Shown here: positions 2,533 through 57,918 of the stretch, piece by piece
Layout: each line of letters begins with the position of its first letter
Numbering within the stretch: the stretch's first letter is position 1
The notes under the pieces: model-generated
What the model was told of the DNA's origin: nothing
The model's database searches: none
The model's input: the letters and a program-made list of their open reading frames with translations, nothing else
Position numbers and translations under genes: made by a program
DNA from: a phage
Reading direction: 5' to 3' (one strand)
Length of the DNA stretch: 64,000 bases
Sequence record: PZ452582.1

Positions 2533-2706
2533 ATGAAATCATATACTCAATTTTTAAATGAAGCGGTGTTAAATGAAGCATCTAGCACCGAAATTCAAGC
2601 TGTCGCAAAAGCAGCCATTGCAGCGGGTAAATATTCTTATAAAGATGCTTCTGATGAATCGCGATTCCAGTTCGCACGCGACATGAAAGCGGAAGGATTT
2701 ACGTGA
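2533..2706 (+). CDS. small protein (57 aa) with capsid-targeting-sequence-like N-terminus (candidate internal protein)
   Basis: N-terminus MKSYTQFLNEA resembles T4 internal-protein CTS MKTYQEFIAEA; SD agga; late promoter upstream. Confidence 0.5.
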   Translation: MKSYTQFLNEAVLNEASSTEIQAVAKAAIAAGKYSYKDASDESRFQFARDMKAEGFT

Positions 2707-4569: not shown

Positions 4570-4610
4570 TGATAAGGGGCTTCGGCCCCTATTACTTGGA
4601 GTAAGTAGGA

Positions 4611-14630: not shown

Positions 14631-14654
14631 AGTCTCCTTCGGGAGACTTTTTTC
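14631..14654 (+). terminator. rho-independent terminator (UUCG tetraloop)
   Basis: agtctcc-ttcg-ggagact followed by TTTTTT. Confidence 0.8.
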
Positions 14655-18185: not shown

Positions 18186-18187
18186 TA

Positions 18188-18211
18188 GGGAGCCTTCGGG
18201 CTCCCTTTTTT
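18188..18211 (+). terminator. rho-independent terminator (UUCG tetraloop)
   Basis: gggagcc-ttcg-ggctccc plus TTTTTT. Confidence 0.8.
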
Positions 18212-30946: not shown

Positions 30947-31147
30947 ATGAATCCTGAATCTAAATTATCACAACGAATTGCCGAATCTCGTCGTCAGTTC
31001 TTTGAAAATATGATAGCCCAAGGTATTGATGATGAAGTTTTTCTAAACTGGTTTTGGAATCACAAATATTCAAGTTGCTCAGGAGCAATATTAATATCAG
31101 CCGCAATGATGTATGAAGGCTGGAAGGGTGCCAAAAAGTTTAGCTAA
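30947..31147 (+). CDS. hypothetical protein (66 aa)
   Basis: ATG ORF ending at a terminator hairpin. Confidence 0.5.
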   Translation: MNPESKLSQRIAESRRQFFENMIAQGIDDEVFLNWFWNHKYSSCSGAILISAAMMYEGWKGAKKFS

Positions 31148-31164
31148 GGGCTTCGGCCCTTTTT
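31148..31164 (+). terminator. rho-independent terminator (UUCG tetraloop)
   Basis: gggc-ttcg-gccc plus TTTTT. Confidence 0.7.
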
Positions 31165-33342: not shown

Positions 33343-33516
33343 ATGAACACCCAGACTTCTGAAATAGATTATAATAAAATTCGTTCCTCTAAAGAGGAAA
33401 TGATGAGACTCTTTAAAGCGTCTCATGATAAAGCTAAAGCAGAAGGAACTATAAAATATAAGCGCATAAAATTTAAAAGTTCTAACGAGCCTCTGTATGG
33501 CGTATTATGTGGATAG
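33343..33516 (+). CDS. hypothetical small protein (57 aa)
   Basis: ATG ORF ending in the hairpin at 33515; weak SD. Confidence 0.35.
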   Translation: MNTQTSEIDYNKIRSSKEEMMRLFKASHDKAKAEGTIKYKRIKFKSSNEPLYGVLCG

Positions 33517-33582
33517 GAGCTTCGGCTCCTATATTGCTTTATAAATTTTTGGTAAAATAAACCAAAACAAAGAGGATATTAA

Positions 33583-34785
33583 ATGAAAGTATGTATTTTT
33601 ATGGCTCGAGGTCTTGAAGGTTGTGGTGTAACTAAATTTTCTCTTGAGCAACGTGATTGGTTTATTAAGAATGGTCATGAAGTAACTTTGGTTTATGCTA
33701 AAGATAAATCATTTACTCGTAATTGCGCGCATGATTATAAATCATTTTCAATTCCGGTTTTATTGGCAAAAGAATATGATAAAACACTTAAGCTGGTAAA
33801 TGATTGTGATATTCTAATTATCAATTCAGTTCCTGCTACTTCGGTTGAAGAAGACACTATTAATAACTATAAAAAAATTATTGATAACATTAAACCTTCT
33901 GTTCGTGTTGTAGTTTATCAACATGACCATTCTTCTCTTTCTTTGCGCCGAAATTTGGGATTAGAAGAAACTGTTCGTCGAGCTGATGTTATTTTTAGCC
34001 ATTCTGATAATGGTGATTTTAATAAAGTTCTGATGAAAGAATGGTATCCTGAAACAGTTTCTCTGTTTGATGATATTGAAGAAGCACCGACAGTATATAA
34101 CTTTCAGCCTCCTATGGATATTGCGAAGGTTCGGTCAACCTACTGGAAAGATGTTTCTGAAATTAACATGAATATCAACCGTTGGATTGGTCGTACGACT
34201 ACATGGAAAGGTTTTTATCAGATGTTTGATTTTCATGAAAAACATCTTAAACCTGCAGGACTAAGTACTATTATGGAAGGTCTGGAACGTTCTCCAGCGT
34301 TCATTCCTATTAAAGAAAAAGGAATTCCATACGAGTATTATCGTCTTCATCAAGTAGACCAAATTAAAATTGCTCCTAATTTGCCAACGCAAATTCTTGA
34401 CCGTTATGTAAATAGCGAAATGCTTGAACGCATGAGTAAATCCGGTTTTGGTTATCAGCTGAGTAAGTTGGACAAAAAATATCTACAGCGTTCTTTAGAA
34501 TATACTCATCTCGAGCTTGGTGCATGCGGAACAATTCCGGTATTTTGGAAATCTACTGGCGAAAATTTAAAATTCCGTGTTGATAATACTCCTTTGACCT
34601 CGCATGATAGCGGTATCATTTGGTTTGATGAAAATGATATGGAATCAACATTTGAACGTATTAAAGAACTGTCATCTGACCGAACTCTTTATGACCGCGA
34701 ACGTGAAAAAGCTTATGAATTTTTGTATCAGCATCAAGATTCAAGCTTCTGCTTTAAAGAACAGTTTGACATTATTACAAAATAA
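33583..34785 (+). CDS. agt: DNA alpha-glucosyltransferase
   Basis: 400 aa, near-identical to recalled T4 Agt (M..CIFMARGLEGCGVTKFSLEQRDWFIKNGHEVTLVYAKDKSF...). Confidence 0.95.
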   Translation: MKVCIFMARGLEGCGVTKFSLEQRDWFIKNGHEVTLVYAKDKSFTRNCAHDYKSFSIPVLLAKEYDKTLKLVNDCDILIINSVPATSVEEDTINNYKKIIDNIKPSVRVVVYQHDHSSLSLRRNLGLEETVRRADVIFSHSDNGDFNKVLMKEWYPETVSLFDDIEEAPTVYNFQPPMDIAKVRSTYWKDVSEINMNINRWIGRTTTWKGFYQMFDFHEKHLKPAGLSTIMEGLERSPAFIPIKEKGIPYEYYRLHQVDQIKIAPNLPTQILDRYVNSEMLERMSKSGFGYQLSKLDKKYLQRSLEYTHLELGACGTIPVFWKSTGENLKFRVDNTPLTSHDSGIIWFDENDMESTFERIKELSSDRTLYDREREKAYEFLYQHQDSSFCFKEQFDIITK

Positions 34786-34824
34786 AGGGCTTCGGCCCTT
34801 TAGCTTTATACGGAGTTTGATATA

Positions 34825-41190: not shown

Positions 41191-41206
41191 AGGGCTTCGG
41201 CCCTTT
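41191..41206 (+). terminator. UUCG tetraloop hairpin, weak terminator
   Basis: agggc-ttcg-gccct followed by TTT. Confidence 0.5.
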
Positions 41207-43358: not shown

Positions 43359-43374
43359 AGGGGCTTCGGCCCCT
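43359..43374 (+). terminator. UUCG tetraloop hairpin (aggggc-ttcg-gcccct), no strong U-tract
   Basis: Perfect 6 bp stem; followed by tatttgg. Confidence 0.5.
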
Positions 43375-47355: not shown

Positions 47356-48096
47356 ATGATTAGTGACTCTATGACAGTTGAAGAAATCCGTCTTCATTTG
47401 GGGCTTGCATTAAAAGAAAAAGATTTCGTAGTTGATAAAACCGGTGTTAAAACTATTGAAATTATTGGCGCATCATTTGTAGCAGATGAACCGTTTATTT
47501 TTGGTGCTCTTAATGATGAATACATTCAGCGTGAACTTGAATGGTATAAATCTAAGAGCTTGTTCGTTAAAGATATTCCAGGTGAAACACCGAAGATTTG
47601 GCAACAAGTAGCATCTTCTAAAGGCGAAATTAACTCGAACTATGGTTGGGCTATTTGGTCAGAAGATAACTATGCCCAGTATGATATGTGTTTAGCTGAA
47701 CTTGGTCAAAATCCTGATTCTCGACGTGGTATCATGATTTATACTCGTCCATCCATGCAATTTGACTACAATAAAGATGGTATGTCAGATTTCATGTGTA
47801 CTAATACAGTACAGTACCTGATTCGTGATAAGAAAGTCAATGCAGTAGTAAGCATGCGCTCAAATGACGTGGTCTTCGGATTCCGTAATGATTATGCATG
47901 GCAAAAATACGTATTAGATAAATTAGTATCTGATTTGAATGCCGGCGATTCATCTCGTCAGTATAAAGCAGGTTCTATTATATGGAATGTCGGAAGTCTT
48001 CATGTATATTCTCGTCATTTTTACTTGGTTGATCATTGGTGGAATACTGGCGAAACTCATATTGTGAAAAAAGACTATAAAGGTGAGTGGAAATGA
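47356..48096 (+). CDS. 42: dCMP hydroxymethylase gp42
   Basis: 246 aa thymidylate-synthase-like fold; position between imm and glycosyltransferase. Confidence 0.95.
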   Translation: MISDSMTVEEIRLHLGLALKEKDFVVDKTGVKTIEIIGASFVADEPFIFGALNDEYIQRELEWYKSKSLFVKDIPGETPKIWQQVASSKGEINSNYGWAIWSEDNYAQYDMCLAELGQNPDSRRGIMIYTRPSMQFDYNKDGMSDFMCTNTVQYLIRDKKVNAVVSMRSNDVVFGFRNDYAWQKYVLDKLVSDLNAGDSSRQYKAGSIIWNVGSLHVYSRHFYLVDHWWNTGETHIVKKDYKGEWK

Positions 48097-48935
48097 TTCA
48101 ATTCGTAATTCCAAGTTATCAGCGTGTCAGGGCAGTTTCTGCCCTTGATATGTTTCCGACTGATTATGAACCGCATATTGTAGTGCGTGAACATGAAGAA
48201 AAAGCTTATCATGACGCTTATGGGTCTAGAGCTAAAATTATAACTATTCCTGATGATGTAAACGGAATTGCCGGTACTCGTAAAGCAATTACCGATATAT
48301 ATGCAGGTCAACGAATCTGGATGATTGACGATGATACTACTATTCGTATGAGTTCAATGCGAAAAAGAGATGATCGTCGTTGCGTAGATAAAGTCAATCA
48401 ATTGACTCGTGAACAGTTCTATGAATTGATTCAATATGTTGAGGATGCCATGGATTGCGGGTATTATCATGGCCATGCTCGTCTACCTATTTTTAAAATT
48501 ACTTCATCTTGGGGTAATTATCGTGAAAATTCATATGGATTCACGAATACATGGTATGACCTCGGAAAACTTACGACAGAACAAATTGGGTATGGAAAAA
48601 TTGATTTATGCGAAGATATGTATGCATTTCTCAATTTAATTAATCAAGGTTATCCGCATTTGGCCTTGTTCAAATATCTAGTTGTATCTGGAAAAGCACA
48701 AGCTCCTGGCGGGTGCAGTTCAATTCGTAGTAATTCTAAACATAATAGAGCGCTTGAGCAGATTAATAGAGAGTTTCCAGAGCAAGCTCGTTGGAAAACT
48801 TCTAATATTGAAAAACGAAAATCGTTGGGTGAAGAAGACGAACCATTAAAGGTTCTTCGCATGTGCGTTTCACGTAAAGAAAAATCAGAAGCATTTCATA
48901 AGTTTAATGCTATTCATCCAATAGCAGTTGATTAA
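48093..48935 (+). CDS. GT-A fold glycosyltransferase (DxD motif) at the T4 beta-gt position; not T4 beta-gt
   Basis: WMIDDDTT DxD motif; ATGA-coupled to gene 42; 280 aa vs 351 aa for T4 beta-gt. Confidence 0.6.
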   Translation: MIQFVIPSYQRVRAVSALDMFPTDYEPHIVVREHEEKAYHDAYGSRAKIITIPDDVNGIAGTRKAITDIYAGQRIWMIDDDTTIRMSSMRKRDDRRCVDKVNQLTREQFYELIQYVEDAMDCGYYHGHARLPIFKITSSWGNYRENSYGFTNTWYDLGKLTTEQIGYGKIDLCEDMYAFLNLINQGYPHLALFKYLVVSGKAQAPGGCSSIRSNSKHNRALEQINREFPEQARWKTSNIEKRKSLGEEDEPLKVLRMCVSRKEKSEAFHKFNAIHPIAVD

Positions 48936-49012
48936 TGCCTAAATTTATTGTGTTATAATTACTCTATCTTTAACCAGTGAGGAAAATATAATGATGCCTA
49001 TGGAAAAAATGA

Positions 49013-50194
49013 ATGTCTATTGCAGATTTAAAATCCCGTTTGATTAAAGCTTCCACTTCTAAAATGACTGCTGAACTGACTACATCTAAATTCTTTAATG
49101 AAAAGGATGTAATTCGTACAAAAATTCCAATGCTTAATATTGCTATTTCTGGTGCGATTGATGGCGGCATGCAGTCTGGTTTAACTATTTTCGCAGGGCC
49201 TTCTAAACACTTTAAATCAAATATGTCTTTGACTATGGTTGCGGCATATTTGAACAAATATCCTGACGCGGTTTGTCTATTCTATGATAGTGAATTTGGT
49301 ATTACTCCAGCTTATTTGCGATCCATGGGAGTTGACCCGGAACGAGTAATTCATACGCCGATTCAGTCAGTTGAACAGCTGAAAATTGATATGGTGAACC
49401 AGCTTGAAGCTATTGAGCGTGGTGAAAAGGTTATTGTATTCATCGACTCAATTGGTAATATGGCTTCTAAGAAAGAAACGGAAGATGCCTTGAATGAAAA
49501 ATCTGTGGCAGATATGACTCGTGCTAAATCACTGAAGTCATTATTCCGTATTGTTACTCCTTACTTTAGCATTAAAAATATTCCATGTGTTGCGGTTAAC
49601 CATACAATTGAAACAATTGAAATGTTTAGTAAAACCGTGATGACAGGTGGTACAGGCGTAATGTATTCGGCTGATACTGTATTCATTATCGGTAAGCGTC
49701 AGATTAAAGATGGTTCTGATCTTCAGGGGTATCAATTTGTTCTAAATGTAGAAAAATCTCGTACCGTTAAAGAAAAAAGTAAATTCTTTATTGATGTTAA
49801 ATTTGACGGTGGTATCGATCCTTATTCTGGATTGTTAGATATGGCTCTAGAATTAGGATTTGTAGTAAAACCTAAAAATGGTTGGTATGCTCGTGAATTT
49901 CTTGACGAAGAAACCGGCGAGATGATTCGCGAAGAAAAATCTTGGCGTGCAAAAGATACTAACTGCACTACATTCTGGGGTCCTTTATTTAAGCATCAAC
50001 CATTCCGAGATGCTATTAAGCGTGCTTATCAGTTAGGTGCTATTGATAGTAATGAAATTGTTGAAGCGGAAGTTGATGAATTAATTAACTCAAAGGTTGA
50101 AAAATTTAAATCCTCAGAAAGTAAAAGTAAATCAGCAGCTGATTTAGAAACTGACCTCGAGCAGTTAAGTGATATGGAAGAATTTAATGAATAA
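49013..50194 (+). CDS. uvsX: recombinase UvsX (RecA-like)
   Basis: 393 aa, near-identical to recalled T4 UvsX over most of its length. Confidence 0.95.
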   Translation: MSIADLKSRLIKASTSKMTAELTTSKFFNEKDVIRTKIPMLNIAISGAIDGGMQSGLTIFAGPSKHFKSNMSLTMVAAYLNKYPDAVCLFYDSEFGITPAYLRSMGVDPERVIHTPIQSVEQLKIDMVNQLEAIERGEKVIVFIDSIGNMASKKETEDALNEKSVADMTRAKSLKSLFRIVTPYFSIKNIPCVAVNHTIETIEMFSKTVMTGGTGVMYSADTVFIIGKRQIKDGSDLQGYQFVLNVEKSRTVKEKSKFFIDVKFDGGIDPYSGLLDMALELGFVVKPKNGWYAREFLDEETGEMIREEKSWRAKDTNCTTFWGPLFKHQPFRDAIKRAYQLGAIDSNEIVEAEVDELINSKVEKFKSSESKSKSAADLETDLEQLSDMEEFNE

Positions 50195-50531
50195 AGATGA
50201 TTTAGATTTAGATCTAGAAATTATCGATGAATCCCCCTCTTCGGAGGGGGAAGAAGAAAGAAAAGAACGTCTTTTTAATGAATCTCTTAAGATAATTAAA
50301 TCTGCCATGGAAAATGTTATCCAGGAGATTGTCATTAAACTAGAAGATGGTTCTACACATATAGTGTATGTAACTAAACTGGATTGGGTTGATGGAAAGG
50401 TTGTAATGGACTTTGCTGTTCTTGACCAAGAAAGAAAAGCTGAGTTAGCTCCTCATGTAGAAAAATGTATTACAATGCAACTACAAGATGCATTTAATAA
50501 AAGGTCAAAGAAAAAGTTTAAATTCTTTTAA
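50187..50531 (+). CDS. 40: gp40-like head assembly protein (114 aa)
   Basis: Position between uvsX and 41; acidic N-terminus; ATG 50187 overlapping uvsX end. Confidence 0.6.
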   Translation: MNKDDLDLDLEIIDESPSSEGEEERKERLFNESLKIIKSAMENVIQEIVIKLEDGSTHIVYVTKLDWVDGKVVMDFAVLDQERKAELAPHVEKCITMQLQDAFNKRSKKKFKFF

Positions 50532-50540
50532 GGAGTAAGT

Positions 50541-51968
50541 GTGGTAGAAATTATTCTTTCTCATCTTATATTTGATCAAGCTTATTTTTCAAAAGTTTGG
50601 CCATATATGGATTCAGAATATTTTGAAAGTGGTCCAGCTAAAAATACATTCAAATTAATTAAATCTCATGTCAACGAGTACCATAGCGTTCCATCTATTA
50701 ATGCGTTAAATGTTGCATTAGAAAATAGTTCATTTACTGAAACAGAATATTCTGGTGTAAAAACACTTATTTCAAAACTGGCTGATTCTCCAGAAGACCA
50801 CAGCTGGTTAGTAAAAGAAACAGAAAAATATGTTCAGCAAAGGGCGATGTTTAATGCTACGTCTAAAATAATCGAAATTCAAACTAATGCTGAGCTTCCT
50901 CCGGAAAAACGAAATAAGAAAATGCCGGATGTTGGTGCTATTCCTGACATCATGCGGCAAGCATTATCTATTTCATTTGATAGTTACGTTGGTCATGATT
51001 GGATGGATGACTATGAAGCACGTTGGCTATCTTATATGAATAAAGCTCGTAAAGTTCCATTTAAACTCAGAATTCTAAACAAAATTACTAAAGGCGGAGC
51101 TGAAACAGGAACACTGAACGTTTTAATGGCTGGCGTTAACGTTGGTAAATCATTAGGATTGTGTTCATTAGCGGCAGATTATTTACAGCTCGGACATAAT
51201 GTTCTTTACATTTCCATGGAAATGGCAGAAGAAGTCTGTGCTAAGCGTATTGACGCTAACATGCTTGATGTTTCTCTTGATGACATTGATGATGGGCATA
51301 TTTCTTACGCTGAATATAAAGGAAAAATGGAAAAATGGCGTGAGAAATCTACCCTTGGTCGTTTAATCGTTAAGCAATATCCTACTGGTGGAGCAGACGC
51401 TAATACATTTCGATCACTTTTAAATGAATTAAAGCTCAAGAAGAATTTTGTTCCAACAATCATTATTGTCGACTATCTAGGTATTTGTAAATCTTGCCGC
51501 ATTAGAGTTTATTCAGAAAATAGTTACACAACTGTTAAAGCTATCGCAGAGGAATTGCGTGCTCTGGCTGTTGAAACCGAAACTGTTCTTTGGACTGCAG
51601 CACAGGTTGGTAAACAAGCTTGGGACTCTTCCGATGTTAACATGAGCGATATTGCAGAATCTGCTGGTCTTCCAGCAACAGCTGATTTTATGCTTGCGGT
51701 CATTGAAACCGAGGAGCTAGCAGCTGCTGAACAACAACTCATTAAGCAAATCAAATCACGATATGGTGATAAGAATAAGTGGAATAAGTTTTTGATGGGT
51801 GTTCAAAAAGGAAATCAAAAATGGGTAGAAATTGAACAAGATTCTACTCCAACTGAAGTGAGTGAAGTAGCAGGTTCACAACAGATTCAGGCTGAGCAGA
51901 ATCGCTATCAAAGAAATGAATCCACTCGAGCTCAGTTAGATGCTTTGGCAAATGAATTAAAATTTTAG
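50541..51968 (+). CDS. 41: replicative DNA helicase gp41 (DnaB-like)
   Basis: GTG start with SD aaggag; Walker A GVNVGKS; 475 aa. Confidence 0.95.
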   Translation: MVEIILSHLIFDQAYFSKVWPYMDSEYFESGPAKNTFKLIKSHVNEYHSVPSINALNVALENSSFTETEYSGVKTLISKLADSPEDHSWLVKETEKYVQQRAMFNATSKIIEIQTNAELPPEKRNKKMPDVGAIPDIMRQALSISFDSYVGHDWMDDYEARWLSYMNKARKVPFKLRILNKITKGGAETGTLNVLMAGVNVGKSLGLCSLAADYLQLGHNVLYISMEMAEEVCAKRIDANMLDVSLDDIDDGHISYAEYKGKMEKWREKSTLGRLIVKQYPTGGADANTFRSLLNELKLKKNFVPTIIIVDYLGICKSCRIRVYSENSYTTVKAIAEELRALAVETETVLWTAAQVGKQAWDSSDVNMSDIAESAGLPATADFMLAVIETEELAAAEQQLIKQIKSRYGDKNKWNKFLMGVQKGNQKWVEIEQDSTPTEVSEVAGSQQIQAEQNRYQRNESTRAQLDALANELKF

Positions 51969-51997
51969 TTTACAAGCTGACAAGACTATGGTATAGT
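51969..51997 (+). promoter_or_regulatory. early promoter (TTTACA-17-TATAGT) with inverted repeat caagacta/tagtcttg
   Basis: GTTTAC motif; inverted repeat 51981-52003 around the -10. Confidence 0.6.
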
Positions 51998-52026
51998 AGT
52001 CTTGTTGGTTAAATGAGGAGATTGTT

Positions 52027-52209
52027 ATGGAATTGGTAAAGGTAGTTTTTATGGGGTGGTTTAAGAATGAAAGCATGTTTACTAAAGAAACCACAATGAT
52101 GAAAGATGACGTTCAATGGGCTACTACTCAATATGCTGAAGTTAATAAAGCATTAGTTAAAGCTTTCATTGATGACAAGAAAGTATGTGAAGTAGATTGC
52201 CGAGGATAA
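52027..52209 (+). CDS. dmd: Dmd-like antitoxin (T4 61.5)
   Basis: 60 aa, near-identical to recalled T4 Dmd (MELVKVVFMGWFKNESMF...). Confidence 0.8.
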   Translation: MELVKVVFMGWFKNESMFTKETTMMKDDVQWATTQYAEVNKALVKAFIDDKKVCEVDCRG

Positions 52210-52210
52210 T

Positions 52211-52468
52211 ATGCATATTGTTTTATTTAAACCTACTCCGTATAACGTCAGGAAAAATACGCAATTCAAAGCACTTATTGCAGATACGTGGGAATTGGTG
52301 CTAGATATTCCAACAGAAGAAAGTCCTCCATTTGGTCGAGTGGAATTTATTAAGTTTGCTGTACGTCCTACGAAGAGGCAGATTCGTCAGTGTAAAAGGT
52401 ATTTTCGTAAAATCGTCAAGTTAGAGAAACAGTTTGTAACATGTGATTATGCAGAAGTTTTAAAATAG
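52211..52468 (+). CDS. T4 61.4-like small protein (85 aa)
   Basis: Position and size match T4 61.4 (reported as ToxN inhibitor TifA, from memory). Confidence 0.5.
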   Translation: MHIVLFKPTPYNVRKNTQFKALIADTWELVLDIPTEESPPFGRVEFIKFAVRPTKRQIRQCKRYFRKIVKLEKQFVTCDYAEVLK

Positions 52469-57889: not shown

Positions 57890-57895
57890 ATGCAA

Positions 57896-57918
57896 GGACT
57901 CCTTCGGGAGTCCTTTTT
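57896..57918 (+). terminator. rho-independent terminator (UUCG tetraloop)
   Basis: ggactcc-ttcg-ggagtcc plus TTTTT. Confidence 0.8.

Follow-up and report, generated by a model that had tools for sequence, protein, structure and literature searches.

What does a stable, GC-rich RNA hairpin do when it lies not between two genes but inside one? This question is raised by a stretch of 64,000 nucleotides of phage DNA (sequence record PZ452582.1; the whole of this stretch is referred to below as the window), in which a hairpin with a UUCG loop falls within the first codons of gene 40, downstream of the recombinase gene uvsX and upstream of the helicase gene 41. The window belongs to a T4-like phage, an RB51-like relative and not T4 itself. 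Positions 49000-52000 are 98.5% identical to RB51, in which the region is annotated as uvsX/40/41 (100% coverage, 98.5% identity), and the identity of the locus to the T4 record X03099 is 91.5%. At least 80% of positions 49000-52000 is covered in 563 of 845 matching phage records. All of the large open reading frames (ORFs) of the window are on the plus strand.

The features of the locus, together with counterparts of the hairpin in related phages, are collected in Table 1. The ATG of gene 40, at 50187, overlaps the last codons of uvsX (ATGAATAA), and the translation of the gene 40 ORF begins MNKDDLDLDLEIIDESPSSEGEE. It is only because of this overlap between the gene 40 start and the uvsX stop that the hairpin comes to lie inside gene 40. 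The gene 40 product (gp40) is listed in the protein-class tables in the supplement of a T4 proteome and transcriptome study, tables that give temporal classes only. Gene 41 is the downstream cistron, and the level of its mRNA would be expected to depend on read-through or on stability past the hairpin.

Table 1. Features of the uvsX-40-41 locus in the window, and hairpins at the corresponding site of related phages
Feature	Coordinates	Strand	Sequence or remarks
uvsX (RecA-like recombinase)	49013..50194	+	393-aa ORF, TAA stop; hairpin 38 nt beyond
gene 40 (head vertex assembly chaperone)	50187..50531	+	ORF; same limits in RB51 and T4 annotation
gene 41 (replicative helicase)	50541..51968	+	ORF, GTG start; RB51 and T4 annotation
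Hairpin 5' arm	50232..50239	+	UCCCCCUC; codons TCC CCC TC-
UUCG tetraloop	50240..50243	+	closing pair C50239-G50244
Hairpin 3' arm	50244..50251	+	GAGGGGGA; codons GAG GGG GA-
Purine-only tract	50252..50268	+	AGAAGAAAGAAAAGAAC; directly 3' of stem, no U-run
T4 / window hairpin			UCCCCCUC-UUCG-GAGGGGGA
RB69 hairpin			UCCCCUUC-UUCG-GAAGGGGA; synonymous double change CCC/GAG to CCT/GAA
Ursula, SEA1 hairpin			CCCCCUC-UCAG-GAGGGGG
Jiaodavirus hairpin			UCUCCCUC-GGAA-GAGGGAGA; TCC/GGG to TCT/GGA
Marfavirus EI hairpin			CUCCCCUU-GAAG-AAGGGGAG; register shifted by 1 nt
Gaprivervirus hairpin			GGAGGGAGC-UAAG-GCUCCUUCU; purine arm first, peptide EGAKAPS
Dhakavirus / Kanagawavirus hairpin			GAGGGYC-CUAGU-GRCCCUC; one pair is C-G, U.G or U-A
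Cronobacter S13 hairpin			12-bp stem; within the conserved gp40 core

A stable stem-loop behind the uvsX stop codon

A preliminary description of the window had placed the sequence CCCCCTC-TTCG-GAGGGGG at 50233-50250, 46 nt into gene 40 and just past the uvsX stop. The sequence is found exactly there and the ORF coordinates agree with the site, the hairpin starting at nucleotide +46 of gene 40 and 38 nt after the stop codon of uvsX. The perfect 7-bp stem of that description is correct in sequence and too short in length, as a flanking U-A pair makes it a stem of 8 bp spanning 50232-50251, in which six of the pairs are G-C. The calculated minimum free energy (MFE) is -15.9 kcal/mol for the hairpin alone. 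When it is folded with flanking sequence, a check that had been proposed at the outset, the hairpin persists at -16.7 kcal/mol, and it is kept in both the MFE and the centroid folds of its 181-nt context. No 28-nt window elsewhere in the 3.3 kb uvsX-40-41 locus folds as stably. A GGAG at 50243-50246 is sequestered within the stem, and the stem is followed by AGAAGAAAGAAAAG, 17 nt without any U. The minus-strand version of the hairpin has a CGAA loop and is without terminator features.

Hairpins of this design are strongly enriched on the plus strand of the window, where 11 hairpins with a TTCG loop and a stem of at least 5 bp are observed against 0.27 expected (maximum of 2 in 200 dinucleotide shuffles), and six with a stem of at least 7 bp against 0.015 expected. 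On the minus strand there is a single TTCG-loop hairpin, composed of AT pairs only. Similar hairpins had been listed at 4575, 14631, 18188, 31148, 33515, 34786, 41191, 43359 and 57896, positions that hold to within a few bases of stem extension. Those at 14631, 18187 and 57894 have U-tracts and are terminator-like. Extra-stable C(UUCG)G tetraloop hairpins were reportedly described in T4 mRNAs by Tuerk and colleagues in 1988. The C(UUCG)G hairpins of T4 mRNAs have since been summarised (Hall 2015, PMC4371310), and the gene 40 hairpin, one of the 11 in the window, resembles them in its UUCG loop, its closing C-G pair and its location on the RNA-sense strand. In contrast to the other strong UUCG hairpins of the window, which are found between ORFs (that at 34783 extends over the end of a small, unverified ORF), the gene 40 hairpin is situated 46 nt inside a verified coding sequence.

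Codon choice in gene 40

The peptide S-P-S-x-E-G-E (TCN CCN TCN / GAR GGN GAR) fixes six of the eight base pairs, and given this peptide and the codon usage of the window, an 8-bp stem has a probability of 0.07. The presence of some hairpin is therefore only moderately improbable, since the peptide forces so many of its pairs. The choice among synonymous codons is another matter. The same peptide could be encoded with a structure of merely -0.3 kcal/mol in the least-structured recoding, whereas the actual codons rank among the seven most stable of 6,912 synonymous encodings, with a codon-usage-weighted P of 5e-6. Replacing CCC by CCA and GGG by GGT lowers the predicted stability to -5.8 kcal/mol, and with the RB69-like pair CCT/GAA it stays at -14.3 kcal/mol. 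The codons that achieve this include some of the rarest of the window: TCC and TCG account for 5.6% and 5.7% of serine codons, CCC for 3.4% of proline codons, GGG for 6.9% of glycine codons and GAG for 16% of glutamate codons. That rare codons give near-maximal stem stability indicates selection on the RNA, and the codons of gp40 residues 16-22 (S-P-S-S-E-G-E) would have been shaped to encode the stem.

The hairpin is a known element of T4

The hairpin is already known in T4, where it was described in 1985-1989 and revisited in 2025. GenBank record X03099 (T4 uvsX) carries a feature at 2504-2522 labelled 'stem-loop structure pot. transcription terminator', and the T4 assembly OZ209023 contains the identical 20-nt hairpin in the same place. 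The location is orthologous, downstream of uvsX, upstream of gene 41 and among the first 25 codons of gene 40; where the hairpin stands with respect to the uvsX stop and the start of gene 40 is unchanged, as are the flanking genes uvsX, 40 and 41. The one difference from X03099, which dates from 1985, is that the T4 record has four Gs in the 3' arm as opposed to five in the window phage, and the four-G arm is probably a gel compression error.

More recently, Kim et al. (2025, PMC12152347) studied the 358 nt upstream of T4 gene 41, a region that starts at the start of gene 40. The legend to their Fig. 5B, citing Hinton 1989, places an in vivo T4 3' end immediately downstream of a stem-loop within this region. 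The same article, again citing Hinton 1989, relates that more RNA ended at the stem-loop site in infections of rho mutants, and that gene 41 RNA was restored by GoF(D25Y). In the T4 reporter experiments described there, genes past the 358-nt region were expressed, the effect of GoF(D25Y) was post-transcriptional, with RNA half-life raised, and the 358-nt region gave the strongest stabilisation of a downstream reporter by GoF(D25Y). The stem-loop of Kim et al. and Hinton is presumably this very hairpin, because X03099 annotates a stem-loop here and because this is the sole strong structure in the 358-nt interval. Transferred from T4 to the window phage, the transcript 3' end would then fall in the purine-only tract that directly follows the stem. 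A literature search for a genome-wide dataset of T4 3' ends found none.

One structural site, many sequences

In order to compare the site across T4-like phages, uvsX-40-41 loci were gathered from IMG/VR and from GenBank phages, and each was scanned with a 28-nt folding window. The proteins encoded by gene 40 are too divergent for a single profile, and the loci were found with gp40 sub-alignments and a UvsX profile. A strong hairpin between -10 and +60 nt, counted from the uvsX stop, is present in about 19 T4-like lineages. Among these lineages the sequence of the hairpin, its loop, its register and the peptide that it encodes all differ, and the site is either gene 40 or the spacer between uvsX and gene 40. 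When gene 40 overlaps uvsX, the strong hairpin is located 24-58 nt past the uvsX stop, inside gene 40 (Table 1). When the two genes are apart, the hairpin is in the spacer and is then often followed by a short U-run; hairpins of this kind are found in ECD7, phiKp_4, Ac42/L067, Rgz1, Phynn and Thanatos, and in loci L065, L066 and L070-L072. Rgz1 has kept an acidic gp40 N-terminus, without an internal hairpin. In Aeh1 and Campylobacter CP30A the gene after uvsX is a different one, and the hairpin is still found behind uvsX.

In the first scan, the most stable 28-nt window lay within 180 nt of the uvsX stop in 36 of 43 distinct loci, and six loci of the Dhakavirus/Kanagawavirus type had between 1 and 17 more stable window positions elsewhere. 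The only locus of that scan without a hairpin was that of Acinetobacter PhT2, whose gp40 has no uvsX upstream (-5.4 kcal/mol). In each of the nine IMG/VR UvsX loci that have gp40 downstream, a hairpin reaching -12 kcal/mol or lower starts -10 to +40 nt from the uvsX stop, and the hairpin was top-ranked in five of them, as it was in four of five further GenBank phages. Environmental UvsX loci without gp40 downstream have a comparable hairpin in 12 of 59 distinct loci, from which it follows that the feature is specific to a clade or to this gene junction and is not universal to uvsX.

The loop is not kept in the relatives, which have UUCG, UUUG, UCAG, GGAA, GAAG, UAAG, CUAGU or ACUAU in its place. 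Because loops vary in this way while the stem is retained, it is the stem-loop as such that is conserved and not UUCG. The stem itself is altered by compensatory changes, as in RB69 and Jiaodavirus (Table 1) and in the Dhakavirus/Kanagawavirus group, where one pair passes from C-G by way of U.G to U-A and the change to U-A replaces Gly with Asp. In Dhakavirus, as in Gaprivervirus, the purine arm comes first. In a codon-consistent alignment of 11 sequences from the T4/RB69/Jiaoda group, two pairs show double changes, and 8 of 500 shuffles match the score, a covariation signal within the group that appears modest. The C and G arms are homopolymeric, and for this reason slid registers also pair fairly well. 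The argument for conservation would therefore seem to rest mainly on the turnover of sequence and persistence of structure across groups, and less on covariation.

Conservation in gp40 is lowest over the first ~30 residues, which some phages lack, a variability that would fit an extension of the coding sequence across an RNA element that was already there. A motif (S/T/A)PS(S/Q)EGE is conserved across several genera. Nevertheless, as judged from the sequence comparison, what is conserved is the structure and not the peptide, and this structure tracks the 3' end of uvsX. The hairpin is thus a real element: selection acts on it as RNA, and across T4-like phages its position is bound to the 3' end of uvsX.

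Searches for other identities

Several other identities were considered for the hairpin. A Rho-type site is not indicated, as no C-rich, G-poor tract lies downstream: over the downstream 80-160 nt, C makes up 11% and G 19-22%, with a C/G ratio of 0.4-1.0 in 78-nt windows. Given this composition, a canonical rut site of the type described by Dar and Sorek is not evident. A scan of 49800-50700 against Rfam gave best scores of 12-19 bits, as compared to gathering thresholds of 38-94, and the assignment to a known RNA family was rejected. No late promoter (TATAAATA) was found at 49700-50560, even allowing one mismatch. A review of T4 origins places oriA and oriC near soc and rI.-1; a search of its text found the uvsX gene absent from the origin sections and gene 41 only in the reference list. 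On the text of this review and the minus-strand version of the hairpin, which lacks terminator features, a replication origin or another role at the DNA level was set aside.

A probable protected 3' end for the uvsX message

Two kinds of role had been suggested in the preliminary description: that of an element in RNA stability or processing, and that of a modulator of gene 40 translation. The former is supported by the T4 literature (the X03099 feature and the in vivo 3' end) and by the comparative data, and the latter is less likely as a primary role. We consider it likely that the hairpin is a 3'-end-forming, exonuclease-blocking stem-loop of the uvsX mRNA that lets uvsX outlast or outnumber the 40-41 segment. 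This explanation is favored because the element is tied to uvsX, is selected for stability and is without a U-tract, because the T4 3' end varies in abundance with rho alleles and with a factor acting on RNA half-life, and because the hairpin matches a class of stem-loops known from E. coli.

The mechanism of an exonuclease barrier, and the rationale of stoichiometry that goes with it, we infer to be as follows. The genes uvsX, 40 and 41 would be co-transcribed, and the C(UUCG)G hairpin would fold in the RNA past the uvsX stop. RNAs with ends generated further downstream, either by endonucleolytic cleavage or by non-canonical termination, would be trimmed back by 3'-5' exonucleases to the base of the stem, where the enzymes would halt, and the hairpin itself may also cause a small fraction of polymerases to pause or terminate. 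The outcome would be a discrete, protected 3' end and a long-lived uvsX segment that builds up relative to 40-41. Such an excess of uvsX would fit a high demand for recombinase and a lower demand for gp40 and the gp41 helicase.

Two groups of E. coli structures offer precedents. Stable stem-loops without uridines are found at steady-state 3' ends, where they block PNPase and RNase II (Dar and Sorek 2018, Nucleic Acids Research, PMC6061677). The gene 40 hairpin resembles the stem-loops described in that report in being stable and without a U-rich sequence on its 3' side, with a T4 3' end just downstream that is sensitive to rho alleles; it differs in that those stem-loops have rut sites immediately downstream, whereas the 80-160 nt downstream of the hairpin are A-rich, with C below G. 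In addition, protective structures internal to ORFs give segments of one operon different stabilities (Dar and Sorek 2018, PLoS Genetics, PMC5927463). Like the structures of that account, the hairpin is encoded within the cistron that comes next in a polycistronic message, shows conservation in excess of the needs of the protein, and marks a junction at which expression could plausibly differ. Unlike the E. coli operons, uvsX-40-41 is a phage operon, and different stabilities of its uvsX and 40-41 segments are predicted.

Four other explanations have to be weighed against an exonuclease barrier. That the hairpin is merely a by-product of protein selection for the acidic gp40 motif S-P-S-S-E-G-E, with no function as RNA, would account for the six pairs fixed by amino acids and for a motif shared by several genera. 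It is nonetheless most improbable, and is largely refuted by the codon statistics and the variation across lineages: a codon choice in the top 0.1% for stability, made with four rare codons, is not a requirement of the peptide, and hairpins also occur with the unrelated peptides EGAKAPS, EEGPSGPQ, EEGHYDPL and TEAHASV, with a shifted register (EI), or outside any coding sequence. Furthermore, the N-terminal 30 residues of gp40 are poorly conserved or absent, and gp40 without uvsX upstream has no hairpin. A more serious competitor, although still an unlikely one, is a genuine factor-independent terminator or attenuator at which RNA polymerase stops in a fraction of rounds, cutting transcription into 40 and 41. 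A potential terminator is what X03099 annotates in T4, and the GC-rich 8-bp stem with its tetraloop has the look of an intrinsic terminator, as do spacer homologues with terminator-like short U-runs (ECD7, ...GCCCCTTTTTTC; Phynn, GCCCCTTTT; Ac42, GTCCCTTTTT) and the three U-tract C(UUCG)G hairpins elsewhere in the window. However, there is no U-tract after the stem in either the window phage or T4, and a consensus terminator scan of 48700-52300 does not call the hairpin, and a canonical terminator was rejected on these grounds. In addition, reporter genes past the 358-nt region were expressed in T4 and the GoF(D25Y) effect was exerted through RNA half-life (PMC12152347).

The two remaining explanations concern ribosomes and the 5' end. 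In one, the hairpin is a translation-linked switch, or a brake on gene 40 translation, that forms only if gene 40 is untranslated: ribosomes re-initiating at the gene 40 ATG would melt it, and coupling to uvsX would decide between an RNA end and stable read-through. The overlap of the gene 40 start with the uvsX stop is a typical layout for coupling, and in about 10 lineages ribosomes translating the message would have to pass through the hairpin. Differential decay has been described as dependent on ribosome density as well as on protective structures (PMC5927463). Against a switch, elongating ribosomes readily unwind an 8-bp stem. Moreover, +46 from the start codon is beyond the footprint of an initiating ribosome, and a hairpin at this distance should not occlude initiation. 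In about nine lineages, furthermore, the hairpin is in an untranslated spacer or before a different gene, so that translation through it is not essential to the core role, and we regard a switch of this kind as quite improbable. In the other explanation, for which we see very little likelihood, an upstream endonucleolytic cut would leave the stem-loop to shield the gene 41 mRNA from 5'-end-dependent decay by RNase E. The strongest stabilisation of a reporter by GoF(D25Y) does come from the hairpin-bearing 358-nt region, but the T4 end mapped at the stem-loop is a 3' end and the text of the article reports no 5' end there (PMC12152347); moreover, such a cut would separate the start of gene 40 from its body.

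Implications for T4-like phages

To the biology of T4 itself these results add little, and the comparison across genera is a modest extension of what was described there. What the comparison shows is that a single structural slot is filled by unrelated sequences, in a spacer or in gene 40, and that the structure overrides codon usage and even amino-acid identity. A more speculative and, on balance, doubtful proposal is that gene 40, by extending at its N-terminus, has in several T4-like lineages absorbed an ancestral element of the uvsX 3' end, which now serves as a translation-sensitive attenuator. The RNA structure would then dictate a stretch of protein (S-P-S-x-E-G-E and its counterparts), ribosomes re-initiating at gene 40 would melt the stem and license read-through into gene 41, and untranslated RNA would end at the stem. 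If true, this could supply the mechanism that has been missing from earlier genetic work with rho(nusD) and goF on the expression of gene 41.

The hairpins of T4-like phages also constitute a natural set of variants for testing how 3' ends arise at hairpins without a U-tract, and how Rho alleles and GoF influence gene 41 mRNA. The gene 40 hairpin offers a clean and well-conserved case of an mRNA whose 3' end is defined, inside an operon, by an RNA structure within a coding sequence, and it probably sets the ratio of UvsX, which is needed in quantity, to the helicase and the chaperone, which are needed in smaller amounts.

Hairpins of the C(UNCG)G type across the window

Plus-strand C(UNCG)G hairpins form a family in the window, and the majority lie directly 3' of ORF ends. 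Hairpins with a TTCG loop are strongly strand-biased, with 11 on the plus strand versus 1 on the minus strand. Judged by their T-runs, the hairpins at 14631, 18187, 46143 and 57894 look like terminators.

Features of the window and of related uvsX-40-41 loci (L, locus handle, with coordinates within the locus; otherwise window)
Feature	Position	Strand	Remarks
C(UNCG)G hairpin, UCCG loop	1130-1145	+	
C(UNCG)G hairpin	4575-4590	+	No T-run; leads directly into GGAG Shine-Dalgarno
C(UNCG)G hairpin	14631-14648	+	T-run after stem; terminator-like
C(UNCG)G hairpin	18187-18206	+	T-run after stem; terminator-like
C(UNCG)G hairpin	31146-31161	+	
C(UNCG)G hairpin	33513-33532	+	
C(UNCG)G hairpin	34783-34802	+	No T-run; leads directly into GGAG Shine-Dalgarno
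C(UNCG)G hairpin	41191-41204	+	
C(UNCG)G hairpin	43359-43374	+	No T-run; leads directly into GGAG Shine-Dalgarno
C(UNCG)G hairpin, UCCG loop	46143-46160	+	T-run after stem; terminator-like
C(UNCG)G hairpin	57894-57915	+	T-run after stem; terminator-like
282-aa ORF, next upstream of uvsX	48087-48935		RB51 annotation: similar to T2/T6 beta-glucosyl-alpha-glucosyl transferases
Candidate MotA-box middle promoter	48932-48959		TTAATGCCTAAA, then TATAAT 10 nt on
uvsX in two pieces	L021 1-1441		Salmonella phage SEA1; inserted ORF interrupts uvsX
uvsX in two pieces	L029 1-1408		Shewanella phage Thanatos-1; GIY-YIG Seg-like endonuclease adjoins a short uvsX fragment
Gene 41 in two pieces	L027 1761-3193		vB_EcoM_005; gap ~150 nt, no annotated ORF inside
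12-bp hairpin	L144 about 2590-2617		Cronobacter phage S13; GATTACGGAGGC-TCAT-GCCTCCGTAGTT; -19.7 kcal/mol

Surroundings of the uvsX-40 hairpin

The element formed by TTAATGCCTAAA and TATAAT precedes the uvsX ATG by ~55 nt and resembles in its sequence a MotA-box middle promoter. In T4, by contrast, the annotated middle promoter is ~200 nt upstream, within segA, and the region upstream of uvsX in the window is without homology to that of T4. The slot held by the homing endonuclease gene segA in T4 is occupied in the window by the transferase-like ORF. The annotation breaks uvsX or gene 41 into two parts in some relatives (SEA1, Thanatos-1 and vB_EcoM_005).

A GGAG motif, the cleavage sequence of the T4 RegB endoribonuclease, is located at 50243-50246 within the 3' arm of the uvsX-40 hairpin. 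It would be base-paired in the stem and presumably shielded from RegB.

Arm length and protein sequence

The 3' arm contains four Gs in the 1985 T4 uvsX record X03099 (L001 2516-2522), versus five in the modern T4 assembly OZ209023 (L018), in the window (50244-50251) and in all close relatives. The four-G arm would frameshift gene 40, and the missing G is probably a sequencing compression due to the hairpin itself. Comparably, the 5' arm is one C short in IMG/VR contig 2974573174 (L016/L048).

The hairpin of phage S13 is followed by TCTCAATTTTTT and is located in the conserved gp40 core, where the encoded peptide is LITEAHASVVSQFF. S13 is the most extreme instance of RNA structure imposed on protein sequence.
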